64,000 nucleotides of DNA, from contig JBBTRH010000007.1 of the NCBI GenBank assembly GCA_038065275.1, positions 2,873-66,872 on the forward strand. Reading direction: 5' to 3'. Under the pieces are notes generated by a model that did no database searches, was not told the DNA's origin, and saw only the letters and a list, made by a program, of their open reading frames with translations. Below are positions 4,994 to 62,541 of the stretch, in pieces. The position numbers were made by a program, and so were the translations under genes. Source of the stretch: Patescibacteria group bacterium. Lineage in GTDB: Bacteria > Patescibacteriota > Patescibacteriia > SBBC01 > CAIJZX01. Numbering within the stretch: position 1 is the stretch's first letter; every line of letters starts with the position of its first letter.

Positions 4994-5797
4994 ATGAGCG
5001 CGATCAAGCTCGACGGCCGCCGCGCGGCTGATCGAATGTTGGTACAATTAAAGAAAAAAATTCGGCGCACGCGGGAACCGATCACGTTAGCCACGATTCT
5101 CGTCGGTTCGCGTTATGATTCATCCCTCTACGTCCGCCTCAAGCGCCGCGCGGCCACTCGCGTCGGGATTAAAACCGAAGCGCATCATCTTCCGGCAACG
5201 ACAAAACAAGCGTCCTTGACGCGCCTGATTCGCGCGCTCAACCACCGCAAAAACATCAGCGGCATTCTACTACAACTCCCTTTGCCACCGCGCCTCGATG
5301 CTGACGCGGCCATCCGCGTCATCGATCCCCGCAAAGATGTTGACGGTTTTCACCCGCGCAACGCCGTAGTTGTTCCCCCGCCGGTAGCCGCCGTCTTGCG
5401 TCTTATCAATCTCGGCCAACCGCCGCGAGGTTCGTTCGCGGCCATCGTCGCCCAGCCGTCAGTTTTTACCGCCCGACTGGCGACCGAACTTGCCCGCCAT
5501 GGTTTTGTTCCGGCTGTCGTTGAACCGCACCGTAATCTGAACCTGGTCACGACCAAAGCCGACATTGTCGTCACCGCGCTTGGTCAGGGCGCGCGCTTGA
5601 CGGCCCGCGACGTCAAGCGTGGCGCGATCATCGTCGATGTCGGAATACGTCGGCACGGTAAAAAAACCATCGGCGATGTTCATCCCTCAGCCTGGAAAAA
5701 AGCTAAGGCCATCAGTCCCGTACCCGGCGGAGTTGGGCCGTTGACGGTCTCCTGCGTCCTCGAAAATACTTATCAGCTGGCCGAACATCAGTCGTGA
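4994..5797 (+). CDS. folD: Bifunctional methylenetetrahydrofolate dehydrogenase/cyclohydrolase
   Basis: KDVDGFHP motif; follows glyA, giving a one-carbon metabolism pair. Confidence 0.9.
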   Translation: MSAIKLDGRRAADRMLVQLKKKIRRTREPITLATILVGSRYDSSLYVRLKRRAATRVGIKTEAHHLPATTKQASLTRLIRALNHRKNISGILLQLPLPPRLDADAAIRVIDPRKDVDGFHPRNAVVVPPPVAAVLRLINLGQPPRGSFAAIVAQPSVFTARLATELARHGFVPAVVEPHRNLNLVTTKADIVVTALGQGARLTARDVKRGAIIVDVGIRRHGKKTIGDVHPSAWKKAKAISPVPGGVGPLTVSCVLENTYQLAEHQS

Positions 5798-5846: not shown

Positions 5847-6044
5847 GTGAAGCTCCGCCAGTCGCCGCCTTTGGCGGGATCCCGCTTGCGGCGGTGACAG
5901 GAGCTGGCGGCCTCACCGAGATGCGGTGCGGAGCCACGTAGAAGCCAGGCGCTTTACGTGGCGGAGCGTAACCCCGCACCGGAGGCCGAGCGCACCATAC
6001 TCCTCCACCGACAGAGTCGGTGGCCTCCTGGTGCGCGGGTAAAA
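5847..6044. repeat. GC-rich structured repeat, copy 1 (129-nt core plus 36- and 33-bp insertions)
   Basis: Matches 10281-10409 exactly outside two insertions. The core has several internal stems, including CCACCGAC-AGAG-TCGGTGG and GGTGCGG-N9-CCGCACC. Confidence 0.75.
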
Positions 6045-6074
6045 AAGAACCGCGCCCATCGATCGCGGTTTTTC
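6041..6074. terminator. Bidirectional intrinsic terminator
   Basis: A6-AACCGCG-N9-CGCGGTT-T5. It gives T6 on the minus strand directly after the stop of the 6079..6645 gene. Confidence 0.7.
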
Positions 6075-6078
6075 GTTG

Positions 6079-6645
6079 TCATATCCCCTGGCCGTTGGCC
6101 AAGAGGATGAAATTGCGGAGCGTGACCGAGTCGATCGGCAGTCGAATCGTCGTGCGGAGATACCCGCCCTCATCGGGACGTCCCGTGACGATCGCGACGC
6201 GGCCCGGCGGCCAGGGGTATTTTCCGAAACGATAGATCTCCAACCGAATGCCGTTTGCCGGACGCAACGGGCGGCCGTCGCCGTCAAGGATCCGGAGACT
6301 GATGCCGAGATCAGCCTGATCCTGTTTACCGGCGCGACGAATGAGTCCGGTGAGGAACATCGAATCGACCGGAAACTTGGCCATGACCAGCATGTTTCCT
6401 TCGCTGTCGAGCCGGCCGATGATGTACGCCCAACGGCCCGGCGCCCAGGTAGTCTGGCCGAAACGGGATACTTCCAAGCGGACGCCCGTCGGCGGATGGA
6501 GCGGCTGTCCATTTCCGTCAAGGACCCGGACCCCGACGCACATTTCAACGATTTTGATGTGTCCGCCATCCCTCGCGAATCCGGCTGTCGGATTCACCAT
6601 CGGGCCAAGGAGCAGAATGGCTATCATCCACCGAGACAGATGCAT
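6079..6645 (-). CDS. Secreted hypothetical protein with two internal ~60-aa repeats
   Basis: Signal peptide MHLSRWMIAILLLGPMVNPTAGFA. Two tandem repeats: VRVLDGNGQPLHPPTGVRLEVSRFG... and LRILDGDGRPLRPANGIRLEIYRFG... Confidence 0.7.
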   Translation of the reverse strand: MHLSRWMIAILLLGPMVNPTAGFARDGGHIKIVEMCVGVRVLDGNGQPLHPPTGVRLEVSRFGQTTWAPGRWAYIIGRLDSEGNMLVMAKFPVDSMFLTGLIRRAGKQDQADLGISLRILDGDGRPLRPANGIRLEIYRFGKYPWPPGRVAIVTGRPDEGGYLRTTIRLPIDSVTLRNFILLANGQGI

Positions 6646-6763
6646 CTCGAACCCCCGTTGGACATGAGAAAGATCAGAACGTCGGTAATGTCGGACGGAT
6701 AATAGCGGGTGGACGCTACGTTGTCAATCTTTCGCGGCAAAAAGAAAAACGCCGCGTGGTGGA

Positions 6764-7039
6764 TTACGCGGCGGTGGGGCGGCGAGTTGGCAGTGTCCCG
6801 TACCGGATGCCGTTCGACAGGCGCACGCAATGCGTGCACGCTTGATGGAGTTCCAGAACCGCGTAGGCGGTCCAAACTCGATCAGCGTATTGCCAGACCG
6901 CTTCGAGGTTCCCCTCGATCAGCGACAAGACGGCGCGATCGTTGGCCGCCAGCAAGTCGGCGCGGTAGCCGCCGAGAATCTGGCGGTGGATCGTGTCGAT
7001 TCCTCGCAGGCGACACATAAACTCTTGGAGCTGTTCCAT
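6764..7039 (-). CDS. Hypothetical small protein (91 aa)
   Basis: ATG preceded by GGGAGGAG. A hairpin + T-run terminator overlaps the stop codon. Confidence 0.5.
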   Translation of the reverse strand: MEQLQEFMCRLRGIDTIHRQILGGYRADLLAANDRAVLSLIEGNLEAVWQYADRVWTAYAVLELHQACTHCVRLSNGIRYGTLPTRRPTAA

Positions 7040-7212
7040 GGCTCCTCCCTGAACAGCGGTGTAGCAAAGTCCGTATCATTTCCCTCCCGGTTCTCCGACG
7101 GTGCGATGCAAGGTGCGATGAGGATACACTACGTGATGTTGATGGTGATGTCAAGGCGCTATGAAGAGTGCCGTTGTCGCGGCGTCAACTGCGTGGTACG
7201 CTACATTCCCCT

Positions 7213-8292
7213 ATGTCATTTTCTGTTGGCATCGTTGGTCTGCCCAACGTCGGAAAATCATCGCTGTTTCAAGTGCTGACGAAAAAACAGGTCGACACTT
7301 CGAATTACCCCTTCGCCACCATTGATCCGAACGTCGGCGTCGTGGCCGTGCCGGACCCGCGGCTCGAAGTGTTGACAAAGATGGAAAAATCGGCCAAGAC
7401 GATCGCCACCGCCATCGAATTCGTCGACATCGCCGGCTTGGTCAAAGACGCGCATAAGGGCGAGGGTTTGGGCAATCAATTCCTGGCGAACATTCGCGAA
7501 GTCGATGCTATCACTGAAGTGGTGCGGGCTTTTGATGATCCGAATGTAATCCATGTCGCCGGCAAGATAGACCCCGCGTCTGACACGGCGACGATCGACA
7601 TCGAGCTGGCCATGGCCGACCTAAGCACCATCGCGAAAAGGCTTGACACGTTGACCAAACAAAAAAAGGCCGGATTGGACAAACAACAAACATCGGAACT
7701 GGCGTTGATCGAACGGGTCCACGCTCATCTTAGCGATGGAAAACCGGTTCGTGTTTTGCCTTTGACCGATGAAGAGCGCTCGGAACTGAAATCTCTCAAC
7801 TTGTTGACTATTAAACCGCTGATCTACATCCTCAACGTCAGTGAAAACCAAGTAGCCGCGTCCAGAGCGGAAACGTATGGCTTACCGCCGGAGCAAACTG
7901 TCGTCATCGCCGTGAAAGTCGAGCAGGAATTAGCCGACTTGAGTCCGGCTGATGCCGCCGCGTACCTCAAAGAACTCGGATTATCCGCTTCCGGCCTTGA
8001 CCGGCTGATCCAAACTGCGTACCGAACGCTCGGCCTGGTGACGTTCCTCACCACCGGCCCGGATGAGACACGGGCTTGGACAGTTCCGTCCGGCACGAAA
8101 GCGCCCCAAGCCGCCGCGGTTATCCACACTGATTTCGAACGGCATTTCATCCGCGCCGAAGTGGTAAGTTACCCTGATCTTGTCGCCGCTGGATCATGGG
8201 AGATGGCAAAAACGTCGGGGAAACTCAGAATCGAGGGAAAAACATATGTCATTCGGGATGGTGATGTCGTGTTTTTCCGAGTGAGTGTTTGA
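7213..8292 (+). CDS. ychF: Ribosome-binding ATPase YchF (Obg-like GTPase family)
   Basis: [20 protein letters not shown]1 motif; TGS domain at the C-terminus. Start at Met16 of ORF 7168..8292. Confidence 0.9.
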
Positions 8293-8300
8293 ACGGTTGA

Positions 8301-8403
8301 CCCAGCACCACATTGGCTAAAACAAAAGACTTGCCGATGATTCATTGATTACTACAACGTGACTTCTCAGTAAATCAACAAGTTAACCAATGTGGTGTCT
8401 GGG
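8301..8403. repeat. CCCAGCACCACA inverted-repeat element, copy 1
   Basis: CCCAGCACCACATTGG (8301-8316) and CCAATGTGGTGTCTGGG (8387-8403) flank a 70-bp AT-rich spacer. It starts 9 bp after the ychF stop. Confidence 0.65.
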
Positions 8404-8408
8404 TTAAT

Positions 8409-8508
8409 CCCGTTAGAAGCGGCTAAGCAAAAATTATTGATGAAGTGTTATTATGTGGCCACAAACAGAGTACACTATTTTGGTGCAGGTTTCCCCGCTT
8501 CTAATGGG
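8409..8508. repeat. CCCGTTAGA hairpin element, copy 2
   Basis: CCCGTTAGAAGCGG (8409-8422) and CCGCTTCTAATGGG (8495-8508), followed by TTGACA. Confidence 0.7.
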
Positions 8509-8625
8509 GTTGACAAGCCGTTGCCGTTTGTCGACGGAAGTCGTAGACTTGTACATAGTAGCCCTTTCCATTCCCAGTGATAAACACTCACGGGAGATTT
8601 GCGGCTCACACTTCAAGGAGGACGC

Positions 8626-8769
8626 GTGTTCAAGAGGAGCACGGTTCGCACCACCCAGCACCGCCGTCGGCTGATCCACGGTTACCGTAACCTGCTGGCC
8701 CGCTGGCTGACACCGTTCTGGAGGGTCAAGGACACCCGGCCGATCAGTGCGCGAACGTGAATCGCCCAT
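8626..8769 (+). CDS. Candidate small basic protein (47 aa)
   Basis: GTG start 8 nt after AAGGAGGA (8615-8622), reading MFKRSTVRTTQHRRRLIHGYRNLLARWLTPFWRVKDTRPISART. No homolog recognised, so this is speculative. Confidence 0.25.
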
Positions 8770-8926
8770 CACCCCTCGACACAAATCACCTCGGGGAGGA
8801 GCCTCCGATGCGAAGGCATCAGCTGACGCACACCCACAACCTGCGCTAGCGAGGAGGTGATCCGTATCTTCGCCGGGCTAATTCCCCGGTACGCCATACT
8901 GCCAGTCCGTTCGCGGGCTGGCTTTT

Positions 8927-10138
8927 TCACGTCAATGTCCACTTTCGGATTTGCCGTAACACCCGCGCCCCATCTCGCGCGTAGATAAGCATGTTTGGAT
9001 GAGGAATGTTTAAAATGGTAGCCGACGCATCGGACAGTAGCGGTTCTTGCCTGAATCCTAAGTTTGCGACCGCCTGTTCGATGTCAACGCGAATGTTCCC
9101 GTCGGGAAAAACATACTCCGGCCAGATCATCACCACCCGCGCGCCGGGCCGTAGCTTCGTCGCCCACTGTTCAAAACATCGAAGATACAGCGTTTGTACT
9201 TCTTTAGCCTGCTGACGCAACCACGGTCGCGGTTCATGTCCGCGCAACGGTTTACCCAAATACGGTTCGGTCACGATCACGTCGGCGGCCACATTGATAT
9301 GTCGCGCGTTGCGTGAGGTAATTTCCACCGTAGCCTGAACTTTTGGAAATTCTTTAAAGAGCCAACGGAGATTCTCCTGGCTCTCTCGCACCGCTCGCGA
9401 GTCCGCATCTGTCCCGTAGATTTCTTTCACGCCCATCAACACCGCTTCCTGTAAAATCGTACCCGCACCGCAGAATGGATCGAGCAGGATTGTTTGCTCA
9501 TTGACATTGGCAATATTCAACATCATCTGCGCCAGTTTTGGTGGCACCATGCCGCTCTTGGCGTTCGCGGCCGGGCGGCCGAAGTCGCGTCGGCCATAGG
9601 CTTCGTAATCCTGCACGGCTGTCGTCACGCCGACAATTACCTCCGATGCTGTTTTTACGAATACCAATTCTTTCCCCTTCTCCAACAATCCGTTTTTCTT
9701 CACGGTCACCGCCGACAGTTGCGGTTCGCGAGACGTGACGTACCGCACCGGTCGCCCAGTATGAACTAATTCTTTTTTCAAGCGAAGCCCCTGGCGATTC
9801 CCGGCCGCGCGTTCAGAATTCGACGCGCCGTAGACGCTTAGGCCGAATTCAATGCGGCCGCGGTCAGGAAAGAGTTTCTGCGCCCAGTCTCCGGACAACT
9901 CCTCGATCAGCGTCGTCACCAGATTCGTGGTGATCGGCCAGCGCTCAAGTACGGTCACCTGCTTGACGCTTCCGCCGAGGCGGTCAAGCGCCCGATCGGG
10001 CAATCCGCCCTCATGACGAACAAGCGCGACACTTGTTGACGCCACCGTTACCGCGGCCGACCATGCGGTCGTCATGGCCTCCAATTCCGCCACCGACAGT
10101 TCCGGCTCACGACCCAGGATAAACAGGGTTTCCGACAT
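8927..10138 (-). CDS. THUMP-domain class I SAM-dependent RNA methyltransferase
   Basis: SAM-binding motif LDPFCGAGTIL and catalytic TEPYLG (NPPY-like). THUMP-like N-terminus. Confidence 0.75.
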   Translation of the reverse strand: MSETLFILGREPELSVAELEAMTTAWSAAVTVASTSVALVRHEGGLPDRALDRLGGSVKQVTVLERWPITTNLVTTLIEELSGDWAQKLFPDRGRIEFGLSVYGASNSERAAGNRQGLRLKKELVHTGRPVRYVTSREPQLSAVTVKKNGLLEKGKELVFVKTASEVIVGVTTAVQDYEAYGRRDFGRPAANAKSGMVPPKLAQMMLNIANVNEQTILLDPFCGAGTILQEAVLMGVKEIYGTDADSRAVRESQENLRWLFKEFPKVQATVEITSRNARHINVAADVIVTEPYLGKPLRGHEPRPWLRQQAKEVQTLYLRCFEQWATKLRPGARVVMIWPEYVFPDGNIRVDIEQAVANLGFRQEPLLSDASATILNIPHPNMLIYARDGARVLRQIRKWTLT

Positions 10139-10280
10139 AGGTCGTCAGTATAGCGGAATTGGGCGCTCCTGCCGACTTTCCTGCCCAGCCCCACTTTTAC
10201 GCCCAATGAATCGCTTGATGAAAGGTTTATAAAACGTCTGCCAATACTCGCGGCGCTCACGCGTCGCCGGAAAATCAAGG

Positions 10281-10409
10281 GTGAAGCTCCGCCAGCAGGA
10301 GCTGGCGGCCTCACCGAGATGCGGTGCGGAGCGTAACCCCGCACCGGAGGCCGAGCGCACCATACTCCTCCACCGACAGAGTCGGTGGCCTCCTGGTGCG
10401 CGGGTAAAA
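10281..10409. repeat. GC-rich structured repeat, copy 2
   Basis: 129 nt identical to the copy-1 core. It lies in the rpsF upstream region. Confidence 0.75.
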
Positions 10410-10595
10410 GTGGGGCTGGGCTTGCCAGGTTTTCCGGCTCATGGTACCCTGCGTCCACGATGGTTGTGTCCCGAAGCGCTACGGCCTTCGGGACTCCCCG
10501 CAGATTGTGGGGACCCGCGCGCCATCGATCCGATCGAGGCACACCTTCGACGGTCATGGCGGGCGCCTCCCGCTTATTAGGTATTCATCCACTCC

Positions 10596-28961: not shown

Positions 28962-29142
28962 ACCTCCCCCGTCAAATAATAATGACAACCTTTGTTACAC
29001 AGAATAAACTACGCAATTAACAAAATCGTTGCCCCCCAACGCACCCCTCCTTCGTAAGGAGGGGTGTTTAAGACAAAACCGAAGACGTTTTTAACGATGC
29101 TGGTAATAGAAAGCACGAATGTTACTATTTGACGGGGGAGGT
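28962..29142. mobile_element. MITE-like element, copy B
   Basis: TIRs ACCTCCCCCGTCAAATA and TATTTGACGGGGGAGGT. Internal hairpin CGCACCCCTCCTTCGTAAGGAGGGGTG. It sits exactly between the recQ stop and the NUDIX gene stop. Confidence 0.7.
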
Positions 29143-33063: not shown

Positions 33064-33250
33064 ACCTCCCCCGTCAAATAGTAACATTCGTACTTTCTAA
33101 TGCCATCATCTATACAAAACGTTTTTGGTTTTATCATAAACCCCCCTCCTCCCGCGCGGGCGGGAGGAGGGGTGCGTTTGGGGCAACGATTTCGCTAAAT
33201 GTGTAATTTATTTTGTAATTCAGACAATCAGTAACATTTGACGAGGGGGG
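33064..33250. mobile_element. MITE-like element, copy C (inverted relative to copy B)
   Basis: TIRs ACCTCCCCCGTCAAATA (33064-33080) and CATTTGACGAGGGGGG (33235-33250). Its interior is the reverse complement of copy B: GTAACATTCGTACTTTCTAATGCCATCATC versus GATGCTGGTAATAGAAAGCACGAATGTTAC, and the GGGAGGAGGGGTGCGTTTGGGGCAACGATTTCG block. Confidence 0.7.
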
Positions 33251-42175: not shown

Positions 42176-42299
42176 ACAACGACCGCGGGGCGGGCACCCA
42201 ACTTCGGGTTCGAATTGTCAGCGTCGTTCCAGTTCACGTTGACCTGCCTATCCTGCGGATTCCAGTTGGCATTGGCGACCTTCGATGACGACACGCGGC
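42176..42299 (-). repeat. DGR template repeat (TR)
   Basis: 124 bp; in minus-strand sense rich in AAY codons (…AAT GCC AAC TGG AAT…AAC GTG AAC TGG AAC…). It differs from the VR at 18 positions, 17 of them TR adenines. Non-coding; the overlapping tracked ORFs are rejected. Confidence 0.9.
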
Positions 42300-42513: not shown

Positions 42514-43164
42514 CTATCTGATTATTCTGTTGGCAATGATCGGTACTTCCCGTAAAAAATACTTCTTTACCTGCGCCCAGGTAGCGTCAAAATATATTTC
42601 CGGGTTTGGGTCGGTTTCGGCGTCTTCAAAAAAGACCAAGCTCTTCAAAATGTGGTGGTAATTGTGAGCCACCGACGGATACTGAATTTTCAATCTCTTA
42701 ATAATGTCCTCCAAGGATTCAACATTATTGGCGCACCAGTACAAATCAAAATAATCTCTTTTTTTACCGCGCTGTGAGATGGCGGTGATCTTCATGACCG
42801 CGATATCAAGCTGATTCAGTATCCGGATCGATCCGTAACGGAGAAAATTTTGTTTTGGGAGAAAGAATGGGTAGGCGATGAAACTTATTTTGCTTTTGGA
42901 CAGCTCGCCGTAAATGGTATTTTTTTCTTCCACGGTCGTCTCCCAGTTTTTATAGCGGGCAAAGTTCGATAGCAACTTTTTGGTATCAAAATCTGAATCG
43001 AGCGTAAAAAAATCTAAATCCAGAGACCGACGATGGCCGGCCTGAAGCGCCAGAGCCGTTCCGCCCGCCAAATACCATCCCGACGTAGTAAGCCATTGCT
43101 GTTGAGACAAAAAATCAAGTGCCTTCCTAGTGCGGTGCGGTAATGTTTGGTATTGCCAGTTCAT
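42514..43164 (-). CDS. AbiEii/AbiGii-family nucleotidyltransferase (type IV toxin-like)
   Basis: LAGGTALALQAGHRRSLDLDFF motif typical of DUF1814/AbiEii nucleotidyltransferases; AT-rich. Confidence 0.65.
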   Translation of the reverse strand: MNWQYQTLPHRTRKALDFLSQQQWLTTSGWYLAGGTALALQAGHRRSLDLDFFTLDSDFDTKKLLSNFARYKNWETTVEEKNTIYGELSKSKISFIAYPFFLPKQNFLRYGSIRILNQLDIAVMKITAISQRGKKRDYFDLYWCANNVESLEDIIKRLKIQYPSVAHNYHHILKSLVFFEDAETDPNPEIYFDATWAQVKKYFLREVPIIANRIIR

Positions 43165-43458: not shown

Positions 43459-46140
43459 TTAAAGTATCTCAACAACGACCGCGGGGCGGGCACCCAACCC
43501 CGGGCCCGACCTGCCAGCGTCGCTCCAGCTCACGCTGACCCGCCTACCCCGCGGATCCCAGTGGGCATCGGCGACCCCCGATGACGACACGCGGCTGTCT
43601 AATAGCCATGACCATTGAGATTTGGTCGCATCGTCGTCATAAGCGTCGAAACTGTGATTATTATGCTCTTCAAGTTCACGGCGTTGAAGAAGAAGATATT
43701 CGGACATCGTTAAGCCATTCCACTTTTTTTGTTGAAACAGCGTTTCCAGTTGATCCGGCGTTTTACCCTTCGTTTCCGACGGAACTGGTCTTGATTGGTA
43801 CATTAGCATATATGCTTTCACCGGACGGTTACGGGTTTGTGATTGTTTTGTTCCCTCGGCAATGTATGGATCGCCGTATTGATCGGGGGCGGACAAGCCG
43901 GTATGAGGTTTTTTAGCCATCTGCTCAATAACGGCGTTGATGGATCGCCCTTGAAGTTCGGCCTGCGGCAATATCATCGCCTTATCAAACCCCATTTTCA
44001 GCGCTTCTCGAATTCGCGCTTCGCCCTCCGGGGAGAATCGAATTTCTTTCGGCAGATTGTCGACAAAGTCGTAGAGGTCGTGTTCTTCATAGAACTCCTC
44101 CGAAACGCGCCGTGTTTCCGTAACGTCAAGCTTGATTTCCTTTCCTTCAAACCTTTCGGCAAAAGTCAACGAGGCGGCTGCCCATTCGCGTCGCAGGACT
44201 CGTTGGTCAACTAACTCAATGCCTGCTTCGCCCTCCATCACGACTTTACCCTGATGCGCGCCTTTTCCAACTCCTAACATACGCCATGGTCGTTTGCTAC
44301 GGTCTCCTTTTTTCATCCACTGCGACCGGCCGCCCGTTTGTTCGGGACTGTACACCACTTCCGTGCCGTCAGCTAAAAACTTGCTGGCCTCAACCGGTTT
44401 CGGGGCCTCTTTTAATGTTTCGGCTTCTCGCGGTACGCGCGGAGACAGAGCGCCGATTTCTTGCGGGGTGAGAAATCGATGTCCGCCTTCGGTATGAATG
44501 GAGTCCACCGATTCATCCAGCCGATAGGCCTGAAGAAATTTCCCTAGCAGGACGCGATCTTCCGACGGTAAACCCTTCCGGCCGGCCCATTCGTGCAACT
44601 GGTGGGTCAGAAACTCGGTCAGGCTTTGCCGGCGCATGCTGTGAAGCGCTTTCCGGTAGGCGCCGAGCCAGGACAAGACCAGGCCGGTATCAAGCACCGC
44701 CGCCCGCAGGTAGGAGGCTTCCCTTTCCGTCGGGGTCAAGGCGTTGGCTTGGCCGGTATAGCTACGCTGGATGTCGGCCATAAGATTAGCAAACCGCCAC
44801 AGCGTTCCGCCGGCTTCTGGCTGGGTTTTTAGTTCCTGGCGCTTAACATTGGTGGTGGCGTCCACCACGTCTTCATATTCCGGCGCAAGTTCCTCGGCCG
44901 GTAGACGAAGACGGCCGTTTTGGTCCATCAGTCCGGCCGTCAGCAATTCGTAGAGTTCCGGATTTTCCGGCGTCTGTGGCTGGTAGCCGATTTCTATTTC
45001 CCCCAACTCGCGAGCGACTTCAATCGGCAGATCCGACCGGTCGGGGTGTTTTTCCGACGGCAGGTTGGCCGAGCCGATAAACCCGAACTCGGACGAAAGC
45101 CGCTCAACCCGGCCGGCCCAAGCCGCGAAGGTGATGGCCTCGCCCGGCCGGCGGCCGGAGATCTGTTTGATCAGCGACCGCAGAGCATCCGGTGGATAGC
45201 CGTTCATTTCATCCATGTAGAAAATACCGCCCGGCCCTGGTTCCGTGCTGCGCGAGGTTTCCTTGCCGGTTAAGGCCTGACCCAGCTGACCGTAGTGGAT
45301 GTACGATCCTTCGCCGTCAATGGCTTTCGAACCCAGCAAAGGACGAATGTCGGATTTGGCCTCTTCCCCGACTTCAAGCGGGGATCGACCGACCAGGCGT
45401 CGGGATGCGTTCCTGGCGAGCGCGGTTTTTCCTGTCCCGGTTTCGCCGACAAGAAGGAGCGGGCGATTTTGGTTGAAGATGACCAGATACTCGATCATTT
45501 TCTCAAAATGTTGTTCGCGCGACGGAGTCCAGGCGAATCCTTCGGTTCGGAGTTGGTCGTTGTATTCCACCATGCGCTCAAACGACAACCGAGCCGCAAA
45601 CTCAGGGCTTTGATGTTCCAAAGAATCCAATCGCCGTTCTTGCGCCTCGATCTGCGCGGATAACTCACCAAGGCGGATTTGCGTCAGTTCGTCAGGGTCG
45701 CGGTCGCGATGCCGGAAAACAGTGCGGTAGAGTTTTTCTCTCTCGGCGAGGTACGAGTCGCGAGTGTCGCGCAGCTTTCGAAAATCAACCATCGGTTCGG
45801 CCAGCTTGATCCTTTCTTCGTACCACTGACGTAATTTTTCCATGAATGCTTTTTGTGTTTCTGGATTGTGCCACCGCTGTGCGATGGCATCTTTGACGGT
45901 AGCTATCCTATCAGGGCCTGGATGCTCTTCGTGCCGCCGGCGACCGTAGTCTTCCCACAACGCAAAAAGCTCTTCCGCTCCTCGAACCGCCTCGGAGTTG
46001 AAGACGGAAGTCTCCGGCGATCCTTGCGGTTCTGCCCCTTGCGGTGAGCGCGTCGAACCCGTGGTCTCGGGAGGGAGCGGTTCTACCTCTTGCTCGATTC
46101 TTTCCCAAATTGGATGGGTACCGCCTCGTTCAGAGCTCAT
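43459..46140 (-). CDS. DGR target: AAA+ ATPase (AAA_5/MoxR-like) with C-terminal C-type-lectin-like variable domain
   Basis: Walker A LLLVGETGTGKTALA and Walker B IFYMDEMNG. The VR forms the last 41 codons. Start set at Met14 (MSSERGG…) of the tracked ORF. No signal peptide. Confidence 0.8.
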   Translation of the reverse strand: MSSERGGTHPIWERIEQEVEPLPPETTGSTRSPQGAEPQGSPETSVFNSEAVRGAEELFALWEDYGRRRHEEHPGPDRIATVKDAIAQRWHNPETQKAFMEKLRQWYEERIKLAEPMVDFRKLRDTRDSYLAEREKLYRTVFRHRDRDPDELTQIRLGELSAQIEAQERRLDSLEHQSPEFAARLSFERMVEYNDQLRTEGFAWTPSREQHFEKMIEYLVIFNQNRPLLLVGETGTGKTALARNASRRLVGRSPLEVGEEAKSDIRPLLGSKAIDGEGSYIHYGQLGQALTGKETSRSTEPGPGGIFYMDEMNGYPPDALRSLIKQISGRRPGEAITFAAWAGRVERLSSEFGFIGSANLPSEKHPDRSDLPIEVARELGEIEIGYQPQTPENPELYELLTAGLMDQNGRLRLPAEELAPEYEDVVDATTNVKRQELKTQPEAGGTLWRFANLMADIQRSYTGQANALTPTEREASYLRAAVLDTGLVLSWLGAYRKALHSMRRQSLTEFLTHQLHEWAGRKGLPSEDRVLLGKFLQAYRLDESVDSIHTEGGHRFLTPQEIGALSPRVPREAETLKEAPKPVEASKFLADGTEVVYSPEQTGGRSQWMKKGDRSKRPWRMLGVGKGAHQGKVVMEGEAGIELVDQRVLRREWAAASLTFAERFEGKEIKLDVTETRRVSEEFYEEHDLYDFVDNLPKEIRFSPEGEARIREALKMGFDKAMILPQAELQGRSINAVIEQMAKKPHTGLSAPDQYGDPYIAEGTKQSQTRNRPVKAYMLMYQSRPVPSETKGKTPDQLETLFQQKKWNGLTMSEYLLLQRRELEEHNNHSFDAYDDDATKSQWSWLLDSRVSSSGVADAHWDPRGRRVSVSWSDAGRSGPGLGARPAVVVEIL
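43472..43595 (-). repeat. DGR variable repeat (VR) inside the 3' end of the AAA+ ATPase gene
   Basis: 124 bp aligning with the TR end to end. It encodes …RVSSSGVADAHWDPRGRRVSVSWSDAGRSGPGLGARPAVVV, against TR-encoded …RVSSSKVANANWNPQDRQVNVNWNDADNSNPKLGARPAVVV. Both share a GC-rich 3' block GGTGCCCGCCCCGCGGTCGTTGT. Confidence 0.9.
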
Positions 46141-46166
46141 AATGATTGAAAAGTATGTGACATAAA

Positions 46167-46271
46167 CCCAGCACCACAATGGTTGATTCGTTGTTATTTC
46201 TGAAAAAAGTGCAGTCTTTACTCACGTATACGTATTTTTTTTAGTTCGCATTATACCATTGTGGTGCTGGG
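46167..46271. repeat. CCCAGCACCACA inverted-repeat element, copy 2
   Basis: CCCAGCACCACAATGGT (46167-46183) and ACCATTGTGGTGCTGGG (46255-46271), a perfect 17-bp IR around a 71-bp AT-rich spacer. It lies in the divergent region between the DGR target gene and uvrB. Confidence 0.7.
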
Positions 46272-48503: not shown

Positions 48504-48563
48504 CTGACACTTGCGCTCCTGGCGGAACGTGCTAAGATAGCCCCCGTTCTTTGTCATTTCTCC

Positions 48564-48683
48564 TTGTCCGACGAAGCCTTCTTGTCCACCGAAGCTTCAG
48601 CGTAGGTGGAGGCGTAGTCGGGCTTGTCCGACGAAGCCTTCTTGTCCACCGAAGCTTCAGCGTAGGTGGAGGCGTAGTCGGGC
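48564..48683. repeat. Perfect tandem duplication of a 60-bp unit
   Basis: TTGTCCGACGAAGCCTTCTTGTCCACCGAAGCTTCAGCGTAGGTGGAGGCGTAGTCGGGC occurs twice. Each unit contains the hairpin CCACC-N14-GGTGG. The array sits between a candidate promoter (TTGCGC-N16-TAAGAT, 48511-48538) and the M16 peptidase start. Confidence 0.85.
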
Positions 48684-54140: not shown

Positions 54141-54438
54141 ACCAATAACCGTGTGTCGTTTCCTTCGCTCCCTTTGCGGGGCCACGGAATCGGCGTGCGG
54201 ATGTCCGCAGGCGTCTTCCCCTTTCTCCAATTGTGGAGAGTGGCACATGAAGTGTCATTGTTGCTGGGACCACCCCGGCTAGCGCCGCCGCCTCGGCAAC
54301 ACAGCTCGTCCCCTAGCTCACGACCATCCGACCTCCTTCGGGAGGACTACGACCGCCGGGTCCGCTACAGTCGCCCTTCGGGGCCGCTCCAGGACCACAA
54401 AGTCATCGAAAGGCCGCTGTGAGCTAGGGGTCTTTTTT
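54141..54438 (+). ncRNA. Candidate structured RNA (~300 nt), class unknown
   Basis: Putative promoter TTGACA (54111-54116)-N18-TAGACT (54135-54140). GC-rich body with two UUCG-capped hairpins (CCUCC-UUCG-GGAGG; GCCC-UUCG-GGGC), a UGUUGC/GCAACA stem, and a 12-bp long-range helix CCCCTAGCTCAC (54310-54321) / GTGAGCTAGGGG (54419-54430) that ends in a T8 run. No RNase P, tmRNA or SRP hallmark was found. The overlapping 89-aa ORF is Pro/Arg-rich and unconvincing. Confidence 0.3.
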
Positions 54439-54774
54439 ATACTCCTCCCCTGTACTGGAGGGGATGGGGAGGAAGTGAAGCCGAGCGAAGCGAGAGCTGA
54501 ACGACGGAGAGGGGTCGGTATGCCGGGAATTATTGTTCGTTCTCGACATCGCTTTCTTCGTCACCTAGGGCAGGAGCCTCGTTCGATTCGTTATCCCCGA
54601 CGTCGCCCGTCACGACTTCGGGTGTTTCCGGTTTTTCGTCGTCTGGCGGATCTTTCACGTATTCCCGACCCACCCGATCGTCGACTTCATGTTCAGTTTC
54701 CTCGTCCTCAAACCCCGTATCCTTTGGCTCGCGATCTTCTGGACCCATTGTTGTATACTTAAGTTGATAAAGCG

Positions 54775-55481: not shown

Positions 55482-58256
55482 TTAGTCGAGGAGGGGTTTC
55501 TGCGCGAGGGCGCAGAAAAGGGGTGGGCATTTCGCCTCCCCCCAATTCTTCCCCACCCCCACCCCCACCTCAATCGGCACATTCAATGTGTACACACTAT
55601 CCATCGTCTTCTGCAGAAACTTGCTCACCCTTTCAACGTCATCAACCGGCGCCTCGACCACCAATTCATCATGCACCTGCAGTAACAACCTGGCCTGGGG
55701 GCTGATTTTTGGCAATTCGGCGTGCACTTTAATCATCGCCATCTTCATCAGGTCCGCCGCCGTCCCCTGGATCGGCGCGTTAATGGCTTGCCGTTCGGCC
55801 GACGCCACCAACATTCCATTCGATGAGTTTATTTCCGGAAAATACCGTCGTCGGCCGAACAACGTTTCCACGTAGCCTTTTTCATGAGCCAGTTTCTTGG
55901 TGTTGTCAATCCAGGTTTTGATGTTCTGGTGGATGGCGAAGTACTTGTCGATGAATTCCTTGGCCTGCTGGCGCGAAATTCCTTCGCCCTGGGCCAGGCC
56001 GACGTACCCGAGACCGTAGATGATGCCGAAGTTCACCGCCTTGGCCGCCCGGCGCATCTGGTGCGTCACTTTATCGAGCGGCACGCCGTTGATGTTGGCG
56101 GCGGTGCGGGCGTGAATGTCTTCGCCTTTTCGAAAAGATTCCATCATGGCCTCGTCCTTCGCCATCGAGGCCACGATACGCAATTCAATTTGCGAATAGT
56201 CAGCCGACAGCAGGCGGAAACCGCGTTCGGCGATGAAGGCTTTGCGGATTTCCGCGCCGAGTTCGGTGCGAATCGGAATGTTTTGCAGATTTGGATCGGA
56301 CGAGGATAGCCGGCCGGTGGCGGCGACGGTTTGGTTGTAGCTCGTGTGCACTCGGCCGGTTTTTTCGTTCACCAATTCGGGCAAGGCGTCGATATAGGTT
56401 GACAGAAGTTTCGCCAGTTCTCGCTGTTGAGAAATCAGCGGGATAATCGGATGACGGTCCTTCATTTTCTCCAGTTCATCGGCCGCCGTCGAGACGCCGG
56501 TTTTCGTTTTTCCTAATCCGGCCGTCGAGATTTTTAGTGTTTCAAACAACACCTCTTTCAACTGGAGCGGTGAGTTGATGTTAAACTCGTGTCCGGCGAG
56601 TTCATAAATCTTCGATTCGATCTTCTTCAGGTCGCCGCGTATGCGCTTCGACATGGCCGCTAAAAATTCCGTATCAATTTTGATGCCGGCTAGTTCCATG
56701 TCGGTCAGGACTCGCACCAACGGCATCTCCATTGATTCAAAGACGCCGCTGACGTCCGCCGCCTCAAGTTTCGGCCGGAGCCGTTCCACTAAGCGCCAGG
56801 TAAAATCCGCGTCTTCGCTCGAATACCACGACAGTTTTTCGAGCGGCACGTCGGCCATCGAAAGTTGCTTTTTTCCTTTCGGCCCAATCAGCGCCTGAAT
56901 CGGCATCATTTCGTACCCGAACTCCGTAAAGGCCAGTGCGTCGAGGGAGTGCTGGCGCGTGCCAGGGTTTAGCAAATATGACGCCAGCATCGAATCGAAA
57001 CTCATCGGATTCAGTCGAATATCGCTCATGGCCAACACCGCAGCATCAAATTTCATATTATGCCCGTACTTCTCTGTTTTTTCATCCTCCAGGATTGGTT
57101 TAAGAGTTTTCAGCCATTCTGGCTTCGCTACTACATACCAACCCTCTCCGGCTTCCCAGGAAAAACTAAGTCCAAGAAGTTTCGCTCTCCAAGGATCAAG
57201 TCCGGTCGTTTCAGTATCAACAGCAAATTCACTTTTTCTCCCCAATTCACCAATGAACTTTCCCCACGTCGCCTCATCATTCACCAGGGTATATTTGTGT
57301 CCCTCTTTCTTCGGCGCCGGCGCGGACAAATCGAAGCGCATGGCCGCTTGTTTGCCTGTCTTGGCGTCGATCTCCGGCAGTTTTGTCAGGAGCGACTTAA
57401 AATTTAAATCCTGAAACATGCTCACGACTTTCGACCGGTCATAATGCTTGATGGCGGCGGTGTTGACATCAAAATCAATCGGCACGTCGCGCTTGATGGT
57501 GGCAAGTTTTTTCGACAAGAACGCGTCGGTCTTGTGCGACAGCAATTTTTCACGAATCAACCCGCGAATAGCTTGAGATTTTCTTGTATTGTCAGCCAGC
57601 GCGGTGTAGAGATCTTCCAGGGTATCGAAGTTTTGCAGTAATTCAGTGGCCGTCTTTTCGCCAATGCCTTTGACTCCCGGAATGTTGTCCGCGGCGTCGC
57701 CACGCAGGGCTTTGTAGTCGATGATTTGGTCCGGTCGCAAACCGTATCGCTCCTTCACCCCGGCCGAATCGTACAGAGCGGTGTCGCTCAATCCTTTGCG
57801 CATGGTGAAGACCTTGGTGTGCTCGTCGACTAACTGCATCGTGTCCATGTCGCCGGTCAAAATGACTTTCTCAACCCCCTTAGCCTCTTTGGTGATAGTC
57901 CCAATGACATCGTCCGCCTCAAAACCCTGTTGTTCGTAGATCGGAATATTGAAGCTCTTGACCATCTCCTTGACCCGCGGAATCTGCTCGTACAATTCAT
58001 CCGGCGCTTTGACTCGCGTGGCTTTATATTCCTTGTACATCTCGTCCCGGAACGTCGGCCCCTTCAAGTCAAATGTGGCCACGATGTGCGTCGGCTTCAG
58101 CTCTTTCCAGGCTTTTAACAACGACGAAGCAAACCCGTAGACCGCGTTCACCTGCTCACCCTTCACGTTCGTCAACGGCGGCAACGCATGAAAACTCCGG
58201 TGTACTAAAGCATTCCCATCAATGATTAAGAGTTTCTGCTTAGCGGGCATGAGCAC
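55482..58256 (-). CDS. polA: DNA polymerase I
   Basis: 5'-3' exonuclease N-terminus, 3'-5' exo domain, and polymerase motifs including RRAAKAVNFGIIYG and HDELV. Confidence 0.95.
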   Translation of the reverse strand: MLMPAKQKLLIIDGNALVHRSFHALPPLTNVKGEQVNAVYGFASSLLKAWKELKPTHIVATFDLKGPTFRDEMYKEYKATRVKAPDELYEQIPRVKEMVKSFNIPIYEQQGFEADDVIGTITKEAKGVEKVILTGDMDTMQLVDEHTKVFTMRKGLSDTALYDSAGVKERYGLRPDQIIDYKALRGDAADNIPGVKGIGEKTATELLQNFDTLEDLYTALADNTRKSQAIRGLIREKLLSHKTDAFLSKKLATIKRDVPIDFDVNTAAIKHYDRSKVVSMFQDLNFKSLLTKLPEIDAKTGKQAAMRFDLSAPAPKKEGHKYTLVNDEATWGKFIGELGRKSEFAVDTETTGLDPWRAKLLGLSFSWEAGEGWYVVAKPEWLKTLKPILEDEKTEKYGHNMKFDAAVLAMSDIRLNPMSFDSMLASYLLNPGTRQHSLDALAFTEFGYEMMPIQALIGPKGKKQLSMADVPLEKLSWYSSEDADFTWRLVERLRPKLEAADVSGVFESMEMPLVRVLTDMELAGIKIDTEFLAAMSKRIRGDLKKIESKIYELAGHEFNINSPLQLKEVLFETLKISTAGLGKTKTGVSTAADELEKMKDRHPIIPLISQQRELAKLLSTYIDALPELVNEKTGRVHTSYNQTVAATGRLSSSDPNLQNIPIRTELGAEIRKAFIAERGFRLLSADYSQIELRIVASMAKDEAMMESFRKGEDIHARTAANINGVPLDKVTHQMRRAAKAVNFGIIYGLGYVGLAQGEGISRQQAKEFIDKYFAIHQNIKTWIDNTKKLAHEKGYVETLFGRRRYFPEINSSNGMLVASAERQAINAPIQGTAADLMKMAMIKVHAELPKISPQARLLLQVHDELVVEAPVDDVERVSKFLQKTMDSVYTLNVPIEVGVGVGKNWGEAKCPPLFCALAQKPLLD

Positions 58257-58351
58257 ATTCTACCACGATGGGAGTACGAGTTGTAGGATTTAGGATTTAA
58301 GACTTAAGAATTAAGCTTTTGCGCGAAACGTTTTCCAACCTTCCGCTTAAA

Positions 58352-58440
58352 TCATAAAATCCTACAACTTACACCTTACAACCTAAACCCTACAACCTAT
58401 ATCCTACAAACCACAACTTACAATTTTAATCCTACAACCT
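58352..58440. repeat. Tandem ~14-bp repeat array (TAAATCCTACAACC-like)
   Basis: About 7 degenerate units of YYTACAAC spaced 13-15 bp, immediately 3' of the four-helix-bundle gene. An inverted partial copy (GTTGTAGGATTTAGGATTTAAG…) lies at about 58280-58320. Confidence 0.7.
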
Positions 58441-58789: not shown

Positions 58790-58848
58790 TAGTATCCTTC
58801 AACCTAAATCCTACAACCTCAATCTTACAACTTAAATCCTACAACGTT
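58790..58848. repeat. Tandem ~14-bp repeat array (TAAATCCTACAACC-like), upstream copy
   Basis: CCTTCAACCTAAATCCTACAACCTCAATCTTACAACTTAAATCCTACAACG. The last unit overlaps the stop codon of the metalloprotease gene. Confidence 0.7.
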
Positions 58849-59990
58849 CTTCCCCCACCGATCGGCAACGGTTTGGCCGTCCGTGGAAAGTCTACTCTGA
58901 CTGTCAGCTTCTCCGGCGTCGCATCTAGGGTGGTCAAACGCACGCCGGACTGAAGATCAGTGAAGCTCGCGCCGAGTCGCAGGATATTCACGCGGACATA
59001 GGCCGGCGGCGTTGGATCAACAAGAAAGGTTTTTCCGCCGTCACCGCTAATGTGTAGCAAGGCACCGGAAAATACCGCCGGGTCATCCAAACTAAGGTCA
59101 TATCCGATGGGCTGGCGATACTCGACCGACAATACTGTCCCGTCACCGCGCGATATGTTCAGCGCCTTCACGCCGGGGGACAACGATTCAAGTGGTAACA
59201 GGTTGTAGGTGCCGGAAACTGGAGCCGTCAACACATCGCCTTCGTTAAGCCACCCCAATTGTTGTTTGTGCAATGCGTCAAAGTGTCCGCCCATCGTCTC
59301 GTAGGCGCCGCCCATCAGATCAAAGTGATCGCCGTATTCCCAGACCGGACACTGCGAAACAGTCATCACCGCCAGGTCGCAGTTGAGCAACCCGGCGTGG
59401 TGAAGCCCCAGACCATGCCCTAACTCATGAGCCAAGCTGTAGAGGGTCGCGGCGCTGGCGCGGATGACGGCCCGACTGCCGGTCACCGTCCCGTCAGGGG
59501 TTAGGAAGGGTGTAGCGCCGATAAGCGATGCGCCATCACCGCAAGTGGCATTCGTATATGGCGCAACAACGATGAAATGCTGGTAGTCGAGAAAGTGAAC
59601 GTTGGCGCCGCTGGTAGCCAGAGCATTGACCGCCGTCAGGATCAGGTCTCTGATGGCGCACGTCGAGTCGATCGGCAACTGGTACCAGCCGTGGACTTCG
59701 CCGTCAAGCTGGAAACGGCCGTAAGAATTCTCGCGGTAGTATCCGCTGACGCTCGGCACTGAACTGCCGAACATCAGCGTCTGGATCGAGGTCTGATCAA
59801 TTCCCGTCGGCGGCGTTTGGCCGGCAAAGTACGTTAGCATCACCAGGGCACGGTGCGTCGCAACGCCAGCGGTAAACCCATCGTCCCCTGAGCCATCAAT
59901 GACCAGCGCCTCGGCCCTGAAGACCGGCGTGGGCCAGAGTAAGAGCAGAACGATGGCCGGAACCGCCAGGCATCGTTTAGCCGGGTTCAT
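58839..59990 (-). CDS. Secreted zinc metalloprotease (zincin HExxH…H)
   Basis: Signal peptide; LAHELGHGLGLHH zinc-binding motif. Confidence 0.75.
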   Translation of the reverse strand: MNPAKRCLAVPAIVLLLLWPTPVFRAEALVIDGSGDDGFTAGVATHRALVMLTYFAGQTPPTGIDQTSIQTLMFGSSVPSVSGYYRENSYGRFQLDGEVHGWYQLPIDSTCAIRDLILTAVNALATSGANVHFLDYQHFIVVAPYTNATCGDGASLIGATPFLTPDGTVTGSRAVIRASAATLYSLAHELGHGLGLHHAGLLNCDLAVMTVSQCPVWEYGDHFDLMGGAYETMGGHFDALHKQQLGWLNEGDVLTAPVSGTYNLLPLESLSPGVKALNISRGDGTVLSVEYRQPIGYDLSLDDPAVFSGALLHISGDGGKTFLVDPTPPAYVRVNILRLGASFTDLQSGVRLTTLDATPEKLTVRVDFPRTAKPLPIGGGRTL

Positions 59991-62157: not shown

Positions 62158-62541
62158 TTTGGTGACTCCTTTCCTAGGGAGCCACCAAAATTTGTCTATG
62201 TGGACAGTATACCCCAGCGCCGGAAAACGTCAAGTGGCACCGTGAGTCCCGTCCCAGTGGTGCCGCTAGTCGCCGCCCCTCCAACGGCGAGCAGGCCGGG
62301 CGCGCCTTGGAGTTTACCCCGCACCAGAATGGTGCGGGGACGATTTTCCCGCCACCTAAATCCAGGTGATTATGTGGGCGGGATCCCGCTTCGCGGGATA
62401 ATCCTTCGACTCGCTCCGCTCGCTCAGGACACGGTTTTTCTACGGATTCCGAATTAGTACAGATTCGGAATTCGTAGGTAAAGTCTATTCGACTTTACCT
62501 TCCTGTGGTGAGCCGGGCCGAACCATGACGGCAAATTCCTA

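Follow-up and report, generated by a model that had tools for sequence, protein, structure and literature searches.

What kind of element is the GC-rich, hairpin-forming repeat that lies both behind folD and upstream of rpsF in a Patescibacteria group bacterium? The repeat belongs to a 64,000-nt stretch of DNA (GenBank assembly GCA_038065275.1, contig JBBTRH010000007.1, positions 2,873 to 66,872 of the forward strand), the whole of which we call the window. A sequence-only reading had described a 129-nt module with one plain copy and one copy carrying two insertions, and had suggested a small RNA gene, an S6:S18 autoregulatory leader or a mobile structured element. Comparison with contigs and loci from public assemblies and metagenomes (here labelled L001 to L013) points to the last of these, as the module is present or absent at two sites depending on the strain, has inserted a third time elsewhere, follows a constant 5-nt target and has ends of the IS200/IS605 type. 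Judging from these sequence features, we consider it probable, at roughly three in four, that the module is a gene-less, non-autonomous IS200/IS605-type element, that is, a palindrome-associated transposable element (PATE).

Copies, boundaries and insertion sites

Sequence comparison bore out the first description of the repeat: copy 2 (10281-10409) and copy 1 (5847-6044) are 100% identical, barring two extra segments of 36 and 33 nt in copy 1, the second with GCGGAGC at its ends. The boundaries were defined by an empty site. In L009, a contig of a sister strain from the Hainich well H43 that we reached by looking up the 188-aa open reading frame (ORF) next to copy 1, folD and that ORF are just 89 nt apart. 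BLAST of L009 against the window joined 5848 to 6039 with a 2-nt (GT/AC) overlap and flanks that are 96-99% identical. The L009 sequence is ...GACCGGCGAGCAAGC-GT-AAAAAAGAACCGCG..., which gives GCAAGC-GT-AAAAAAG at the junction, and the window at copy 1 reads ...GCAAGC-GT[GAAGCTCC...GCGCGG-GT]AAAAAAG.... The empty site is contiguous relative to a 192-nt insert, with a 2-nt ambiguity and no target-site duplication, and the donor joint expected at the folD site is GCAAGCGTAAAAAAG. The 2-nt overlap arises because the target TTAC and the element end TCAC both carry AC. Since L009 fixes the junctions of copy 1, the insert corresponds to 5847-6038 and to 10281-10403. The repeat noted earlier is therefore real but shorter than 129 nt, the trailing TAAAA / GTAAA(A) that had been counted in the module being target DNA. 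The copies and their targets are as follows.

5847..6038, minus strand: long copy (copy 1) of the miniature element, 192 nt, between the folD stop codon and its terminator
6039..6043, minus strand: target TTTAC of copy 1, kept in the L009 empty site
10281..10403, minus strand: short copy (copy 2) of the miniature element, 123 nt, with boundaries carried over from the empty-site comparison of copy 1
10404..10408, minus strand: target and left cleavage motif TTTAC of copy 2 (GTAAA on the plus strand), flanking DNA outside the element

A 24-mer scan of metagenomes matched only two loci, both from Hainich H43. L008 is the H43 orthologue of the rpsF site, and L007 carries a copy that is 98.4% identical in an unrelated context. 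Three insertion contexts are thus known: after folD, between the promoters of a methyltransferase gene and rpsF, and the unrelated locus in L007. In 3/3 insertions TTTAC stands directly 5' of the element on the minus strand (TTTTTTAC, CACTTTTAC and AATGTTTAC), and the 3' flanks are unrelated (GCTTGC, CCTTGA and TTACCT).

The insertion at the rpsF site was also found in L001, L004, L008 and L010, while L003, L005 and L006 have no module there. The flanks of L003 are 91-98% identical to the window; its spacer differs, hence it provides no clean empty site, and it keeps the enclosing stem CCAGCCCCAC...GTGGGGCTGG without a module inside. Copies of the element are 98-100% identical, as opposed to 70-90% for the neighbouring genes between strains. 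The repeat is a genuine dispersed repeat and not an assembly artefact, because independent ENA, Logan and NCBI assemblies share it (L001, L004, L008, L010, L011 and L013) and contigs end exactly at it or inside it (L002, L004 and L010-L013), the usual signature of a dispersed repeat. An example is contig L011, which equals window positions 6015-10310 and is delimited by both copies.

Hairpins, guide sequences and proposed transposition

The active (top) strand of the element is the minus strand of the window, on which the short copy runs 5'-CCGCGCACCAGGAGG...GGCGGAGCTTCAC-3'. All three insertions have the layout TTTAC / CCGCGCACCAGGAGG-CCACCGAC-TCT-GTCGGTGG-AGGAG ... GGTGAGG-CCGCCAGC-TCCT-GCTGGCGG-AGCTTCAC / flank. 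A repeat finder run end against end detected no terminal inverted repeats, the top-strand ends CCGCGCACC... and ...GGAGCTTCAC being non-complementary. The 3' end of the element is TTCAC, similar to the target TTTAC. Folding of the module into GC stems, as previously proposed, was stronger than that of shuffled sequences on both strands, with z-scores of -3.9 and -5.1 as RNA and -5.5 and -6.2 as DNA. The structured parts of the short copy are the following.

10368..10392, minus strand: left-end module, consisting of a GAGG guide (10392-10389), the hairpin IP_L, CCACCGAC-TCT-GTCGGTGG (10388-10370), and AG; from pattern search and folds, and found in copy 1 at 6003-6027
10281..10312, minus strand: right-end module, consisting of a GAGG guide (10312-10309), the hairpin IP_R, CCGCCAGC-TCCT-GCTGGCGG (10308-10289), AG and CTTCAC; from pattern search
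10322..10346, minus strand: central hairpin (CGGTGCGG / CCGCACCG) between the end modules, from folds and covariance-model alignment; its loop hosts the second insertion (ins2) of copy 1

IP_L and IP_R are paralogous 8-bp hairpins in direct orientation, each with GAGG directly 5' and AG directly 3'. They differ at three stem positions by compensatory changes, and an extra outer stem encloses IP_L. A degenerate search of the window with a pattern that describes these hairpins matched only in the copies of the element; the hairpins can be written as GAGGCCRCCRRC-N3-4-GYYGGYGGAG. The distance from hairpin foot to cleavage point is 15 nt on the left and 8 nt on the right, with T-C-A-C assigned as the right cleavage motif.

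These ends resemble those of IS608 from Helicobacter pylori, the paradigm of the IS200/IS605 family. TnpA of IS608 binds subterminal hairpins on the top strand and cleaves 3' of two tetranucleotides, the flanking TTAC at 19 nt on the 5' side of the IP_L foot and TCAA at 10 nt on the 3' side of the IP_R foot; the cleavage sites are recognised by the tetranucleotide 5' of each hairpin foot (G_L AAAG and G_R GAAT), and the donor is resealed without gain or loss (PMC3201880, PMC5934647, PMC5027513). In the crystal structure G1 pairs with C2 and G2 with C1 (PMC3201880, PMC5934647, PMC5027513), which sets the register we used; the further pair G4:C4 is our own reading of published end sequences. In this register the right guide and the right end of the present element (GAGG/TCAC) form G-C, A-T and G-C pairs (3/3 Watson-Crick), and the left guide and the target (GAGG/TTAC) form G.T, A-T and G-C pairs, two of them Watson-Crick. 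The element shares with IS608 insertion 3' of (T)TTAC, a related tetranucleotide at the right end (TCAC, as against TCAA), a guide directly 5' of each hairpin foot, asymmetric left and right distances (15/8 nt, as against 19/10 nt) and a scar-free donor, and its orientation may agree with the lagging-strand template. Unlike IS608, it has neither tnpA nor tnpB in its total of 123-192 nt, its guides are GAGG at both ends rather than AAAG and GAAT, and its stems are perfect GC-rich 8-bp helices with the additional outer stem round IP_L.

Boundaries, scar-free empty site, constant target, absence of terminal repeats and target duplication, paralogous direct hairpins and complementarity of guides and cleavage sites were all read directly from the comparisons; the enzyme, the single-strand pathway and any current activity we infer. 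A Y1 HUH transposase (TnpA) encoded elsewhere in the genome would bind IP_L and IP_R on single-stranded DNA, and the GAGG 5' of each hairpin would base-pair with the tetranucleotides that are cut, namely TTAC of the left flank and TCAC of the right end. Next, the top strand would leave as a circle with a right end-left end (RE-LE) junction predicted to read ...GAGCTTCAC / CCGCGCACC..., and the donor would be resealed scar-free, the state found in L009. Finally, the circle would re-insert 3' of a TTTAC on the lagging-strand template. The plus strand of the window has a GC skew of -0.034, negative in 7/8 bins, and some three quarters of all coding sequence lie on its complement, so that the minus strand probably carries leading-strand sequence and would be the lagging-strand template. 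Both window copies have their top strand on this G-rich, gene-rich strand (n = 2), which may be the placement on the lagging-strand template that is expected for the IS200/IS605 family.

The element also agrees on all listed points with the published definition of a PATE. PATEs are gene-less IS200/IS605 derivatives known from Haloquadratum walsbyi and Geobacillus stearothermophilus (PMC3119063; PMC10055086). They have no terminal inverted repeats, similar near-terminal palindromes and no target duplication, are too short for a transposase, carry a 4-5-bp targeting sequence at the 5' end, have a longer distance on the 5' side and show strain-specific insertions (PMC3119063; PMC10055086). The element described here likewise lacks terminal inverted repeats and a target duplication, its near-terminal palindromes are similar and direct, and the 5' palindrome is farther from its end than the 3' one. 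Its 5' end too is marked by a short targeting oligonucleotide, its insertions are strain-specific and the empty sites contiguous, and its copies are more than 90% identical, which corresponds to a 'homogeneous PATE'. It differs in its host, a Patescibacteria (Kerfeldbacteria-like) groundwater lineage, and in being known without a parental insertion sequence or transposase and without sequence similarity to described elements, BLASTN against plasmids and phages having returned nothing.

Several points weigh against assignment to the IS200/IS605 family. We found no tnpA, tnpB or iscB, Pfam annotation included, in the 64-kb window or the fetched loci, a search confined to these sequences. Known insertion sites number only three, which makes the statistics of target and orientation thin. 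The pairing of left guide and target contains one G.T, the G4:C4 part of the pairing is our extension rather than a published statement, and no IS608-like extrahelical base is evident in the stems. In addition, the direction of replication was taken from skew and gene orientation alone.

The 36- and 33-nt segments of copy 1 bear on the history of the element.

5862..5897, no strand assigned: ins1, a 36-nt hairpin TCGCCGCC...GGCGGTGA with the inner palindrome GCGGGATCCCGC, 1 bp from the tip of IP_R in copy 1
5935..5967, no strand assigned: ins2, 33 nt located in the central-hairpin loop of copy 1 and made up of a hairpin, CACGTA...TACGTG, and an additional GCGGAGC

There is no duplication at the edges of ins1; ins2 is bracketed by the 7-nt direct repeat GCGGAGC, and its inner 26 nt are unique in the window. 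Both segments are hairpins themselves and both sit at the tips of predicted hairpins, and the length differences are gains or losses of hairpins at hairpin tips that define a long and a short subfamily. From its sequence, ins2 could be ancestral and have been deleted from the short form through slippage between the 7-nt repeats, although insertion fits equally. The short form is found at two loci, those of rpsF and L007, and the long form at one (folD), and in the H43 population the rpsF site is occupied (L008) and the folD site empty (L009). The two subfamilies therefore likely coexist, and the empty folD site in H43 suggests that the long copy reached that site already long.

SMR-A elements are small palindromic repeats inserted in the near-terminal palindromes of Haloquadratum PATEs (PMC3119063; PMC10055086), a situation analogous to that of ins1 in IP_R, with a length of about 110 bp as against 36 nt. 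By analogy, the ins1 hairpin could correspond in bacteria to the SMR-A repeats of haloarchaea, which disable PATE ends. Separately, the element could be more than a passive passenger and act as a stand-alone omega-RNA, likened to the role reported for some PATEs. A minus-strand transcript would then provide a scaffold ending in ...GCUUCAC and a guide from the right flank, with TTTAC as the transposon-adjacent motif (TAM), and could load a TnpB or IscB nuclease encoded elsewhere. Taken jointly, these two extensions are speculative and we think them unlikely to hold; either would be a first for Patescibacteria.

Searches for further copies returned little. An exact 22-mer scan of GTDB species genomes and viral contigs gave no match, and a scan of the GTDB genomes guided by the methyltransferase protein also found nothing, from which we conclude that the lineage is not represented in that collection. 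With the spurious ORFs that the module yields on translation, protein searches gave no candidates in two word-index runs, and an exhaustive search of representative proteins retrieved only the window's own 161-aa ORF. A degenerate hairpin-module scan of viral contigs gave four matches, all due to chance and within coding DNA. The covariance model R1, run with filters off on the window and six relatives' loci, identified the known copies only.

A divergent relative had been suspected at 62240-62420. This region does share exact blocks with copy 1, GGCGGGATCCCGCTT and CCGCYAGTCGCCGCC from the ins1 region and ACCCCGCACC from the module. Two 15-nt blocks are common to it and ins1, the 15-mer GGCGGGATCCCGCTT recurring at 62377-62391, and its plus strand reads TTTAC-CCCGCACCAG, resembling the left end of the element. 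Yet it lacks the GAGG-hairpin modules, and R1 scored it at 10.4 bits (E 0.2), no better than matches inside genes. On this basis we treat the region as a hairpin-rich spacer that shares sub-motifs and not as a copy. It is a hairpin-dense spacer upstream of a gene for an LTD/PKD-domain protein (59977-62157, minus strand).

Alternative explanations and the rpsF region

Two promoters flank copy 2, and it therefore lies between divergent promoters and not, as first thought, in the rpsF leader.

10422..10450, plus strand: rpsF promoter TTGCCA-17 nt-(TG)G-TACCCT, downstream of copy 2; from alignment of the methyltransferase-rpsF spacer in four relatives
10147..10175, minus strand: divergent methyltransferase promoter TCGGCA-17-TATACT, conserved in L003; the ATG is 8 nt past the -10 box

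The position and spacing of the rpsF promoter are kept in L003 (TAACCT), L005 (TTGCCA...TAAAGT) and L006 (TTGTCA...TAGAGT), with TG before the -10 box in each. An S6:S18 or other ribosomal-protein autoregulatory leader of the rpsF-ssb-rpsR operon would account for a GC-rich, structured sequence 187 nt upstream of the rpsF ATG, and proximity to rpsF and GC-rich helices are all that the element has in common with such leaders. The conserved promoter is downstream of the module, the close relative L003 has no module there, the same sequence is found after folD and in the unrelated locus L007, and a different conserved structure in the 5' untranslated region (5'UTR), with compensatory changes, fills 10452-10595, which together leave this explanation next to no chance. 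A multicopy small structured RNA gene or cis-regulatory RNA, spread by duplication and with insertions at hairpin tips that spare a functional core, fares somewhat better and is still quite improbable. It would fit the strong folding on both strands, the location of both indels at hairpin tips and the single substitution of L007, which changes a G-C pair to G.U on the plus strand; in addition, copy 1 would be included in the glyA-folD transcript, at its 3' end and before the terminator. However, Rfam at gathering thresholds identified only one tRNA in the whole window, and at E<=10 neither module region matched a family (best local E 0.7-9, with scores well short of gathering). The scans detected neither a promoter nor a terminator belonging to the module, copy 2 lies outside both transcription units, and closely related strains are without the module at one site or the other; it is not conserved across relatives. 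Transposition, unlike gene duplication, is characterised by a constant 5-nt flank and a scar-free absence.

Mobility by other means was also considered. A miniature element moved by machinery sharing a 2-nt GT core, such as an IS110/IS1111-like enzyme, another recombinase or a REP/RAYT-type unit, would explain the 2-nt junction overlap, the lack of terminal inverted repeats, the strong target specificity and the preference for hairpin-rich intergenic DNA, and RAYTs are also HUH Y1 enzymes acting on hairpins. REP units are 20-40 nt long, very numerous, typically in inverted pairs and mobilised by RAYT (TnpA-REP) (PMC3479197, PMC8266576). As in REPs and REPINs, the hairpins are extragenic and GC-rich, keep a conserved tetranucleotide on the 5' side and are presumably processed by an HUH Y1 enzyme, but the element is a 123-nt unit with distinct left and right ends and a defined target. 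We rejected membership in this class, as the hairpins are direct repeats within one 123-nt unit and the 64 kb contain two copies. The subterminal inverted repeats that IS1111 possesses are absent from the element, and the 2-nt overlap follows simply from the AC common to TTAC and TCAC. Direct-repeat hairpins that carry the same 5' tetranucleotide and pair through it with both sites of cleavage are specific to the IS200/IS605 mechanism, and we consider movement by such other machinery unlikely. Passive spread between strains by homologous recombination or gene conversion would agree with the mosaic populations, in which the identity of L004 and L008 with the window is 100% around copy 2 and only 21-75% a few hundred bases off. 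Between strains, however, recombination transfers alleles of a single locus and does not carry 123 nt to three non-homologous loci, and the junctions are base-precise beside TTTAC with no extended flanking homology among the copies; spread without transposition is accordingly very improbable.

Further readings were tried and rejected. A classical MITE (miniature inverted-repeat transposable element) has no support, as neither terminal inverted repeats nor a target-site duplication exist. A template/variable repeat pair of a diversity-generating retroelement (DGR) does not fit identical, non-coding copies; attL/attR sites of an island do not fit the core gene ychF between the copies; and a retron msr/msd was rejected as there is no reverse transcriptase.

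The rpsF 5'UTR (10452-10595, plus strand) may itself be a real ribosomal-protein leader of the S6:S18 type. Located downstream of the conserved promoter, it is conserved in L003, L005 and L006 and consists of a two-hairpin domain and a TGGGCGGGTC...ACCCGCTTATT hairpin right before the ribosome-binding site. Compensatory changes were found in 9/26 predicted pairs, and there is no Rfam match. On the other strand, the 161-aa ORF (10072-10557, minus strand; protein P0121) spans the transposon, an inverted-repeat hairpin and both promoters. It has been gene-called in the public assemblies L001 and L010, no homologues were found, and it is almost certainly spurious.

Insertion context, other repeats and significance

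Two of the three insertions, copy 2 and that of L007, sit within members of an inverted-repeat family that we call 'arms'. The third, copy 1, uses a TTTAC supplied on the minus strand by the T run of the folD terminator. The corresponding features of the window are the following.

6048..6074, no strand assigned: bidirectional terminator-like hairpin CCGCG-N9-CGCGG flanked by A and T runs, read from the sequence and intact in L009; a simple terminator scan missed it on account of its 9-nt loop
10183..10199, no strand assigned: left arm GCCCAGCCCCACTTTTA of a perfect inverted repeat of 17 nt, inside which lie copy 2 and an 81-nt spacer
10405..10421, no strand assigned: right arm TAAAAGTGGGGCTGGGC of that inverted repeat, overlapping the TTTAC target of copy 2

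The 'arms' family consists of the 17-nt inverted ACCCAGCACCACWWTGG and variants around interiors of 70-80 nt that are mostly AT-rich and not conserved. Members without the element are located at 8300-8406 and 46167-46271, and those with it at 10183-10199/10405-10421 and at L007 531-547/747-763; many members are directly upstream of a -35 box. Candidate readings are a small mobile repeat and a protein-binding or insulator hairpin. A MITE bounded by these arms was rejected, as arms occur without the module and the module without arms. L007 also shares with the window a dispersed structured repeat, GGGGTCTTTTTTATACTCCTCCCCTGTACT..GGGGATGGGGAGGAAGT (54427-54476 and L007 387-434), which is 94% identical between the loci and followed at each by a differing variable hairpin and then GACGACGGAGAGGGGT.

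The genes around the two copies are glyA, folD (4994-5797), the 188-aa secreted-type ORF (6079-6645, minus strand), ychF, a Trm11-like methyltransferase gene (8927-10138, minus strand) and rpsF-ssb-rpsR-efp. Annotations assign the homologues of this methyltransferase to Patescibacteria or Candidatus Kerfeldbacteria, and contigs identical to the window come from 0.2-um filtrates of Hainich groundwater. Over most of 6170-7500 and 9870-10500, L004 (NCBI GCA_038061955.1) and L008 share 98-100% identity with the window, against just 21-76% in 7570-7770 and 8170-9570; the latter block takes in the ychF-methyltransferase spacer together with two thirds of the methyltransferase gene, on its 3' side. 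The pattern of these blocks suggests recombination between diverged populations.

Other repeats are found farther along the window. Two inverted-repeat pairs of 37 and 55 nt (28999-29142 and 33064-33216; 84-87% complementary, about 4 kb apart) bracket NUDIX, Mur-ligase and exonuclease genes, with a second NUDIX gene just outside, and could mark the termini of a larger element or a promoter region duplicated in inverted orientation. Two direct-repeat copies of 124 nt with 85% identity (42176-42299 and 43472-43595) flank an AbiEii-family toxin gene (42514-43164, minus strand); a large AAA_5 ATPase gene (43459-46179) adjoins this region, which may constitute a small islet for defence or for a toxin-antitoxin system. 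Between uvrB (end 48503) and an M16 peptidase gene (start 48706), 60 nt are perfectly duplicated in tandem (48563-48682). Upstream of a polA-like gene (55482-58256, minus strand), the 14-nt AT-rich unit AAATCCTACAACYT forms direct and inverted arrays at 58280-58319, 58357-58438 and 58792-58859.

Overall, an attractive regulatory reading of this locus, as an rpsF leader or a small RNA, is replaced by a mobile-element model that can be tested. The element is of an ordinary kind in an unusual host. Elements of the single-strand 'peel-and-paste' type appear to have been recently mobile in a streamlined groundwater lineage of Patescibacteria, where they make wells differ in their insertions and interrupt metagenome assemblies at defined positions. 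Its defined ends, with the TTTAC target, the GAGG guides and two hairpins, offer a handle for the cognate TnpA, and possibly for TnpB and its omega-RNA, in uncultivated genomes.

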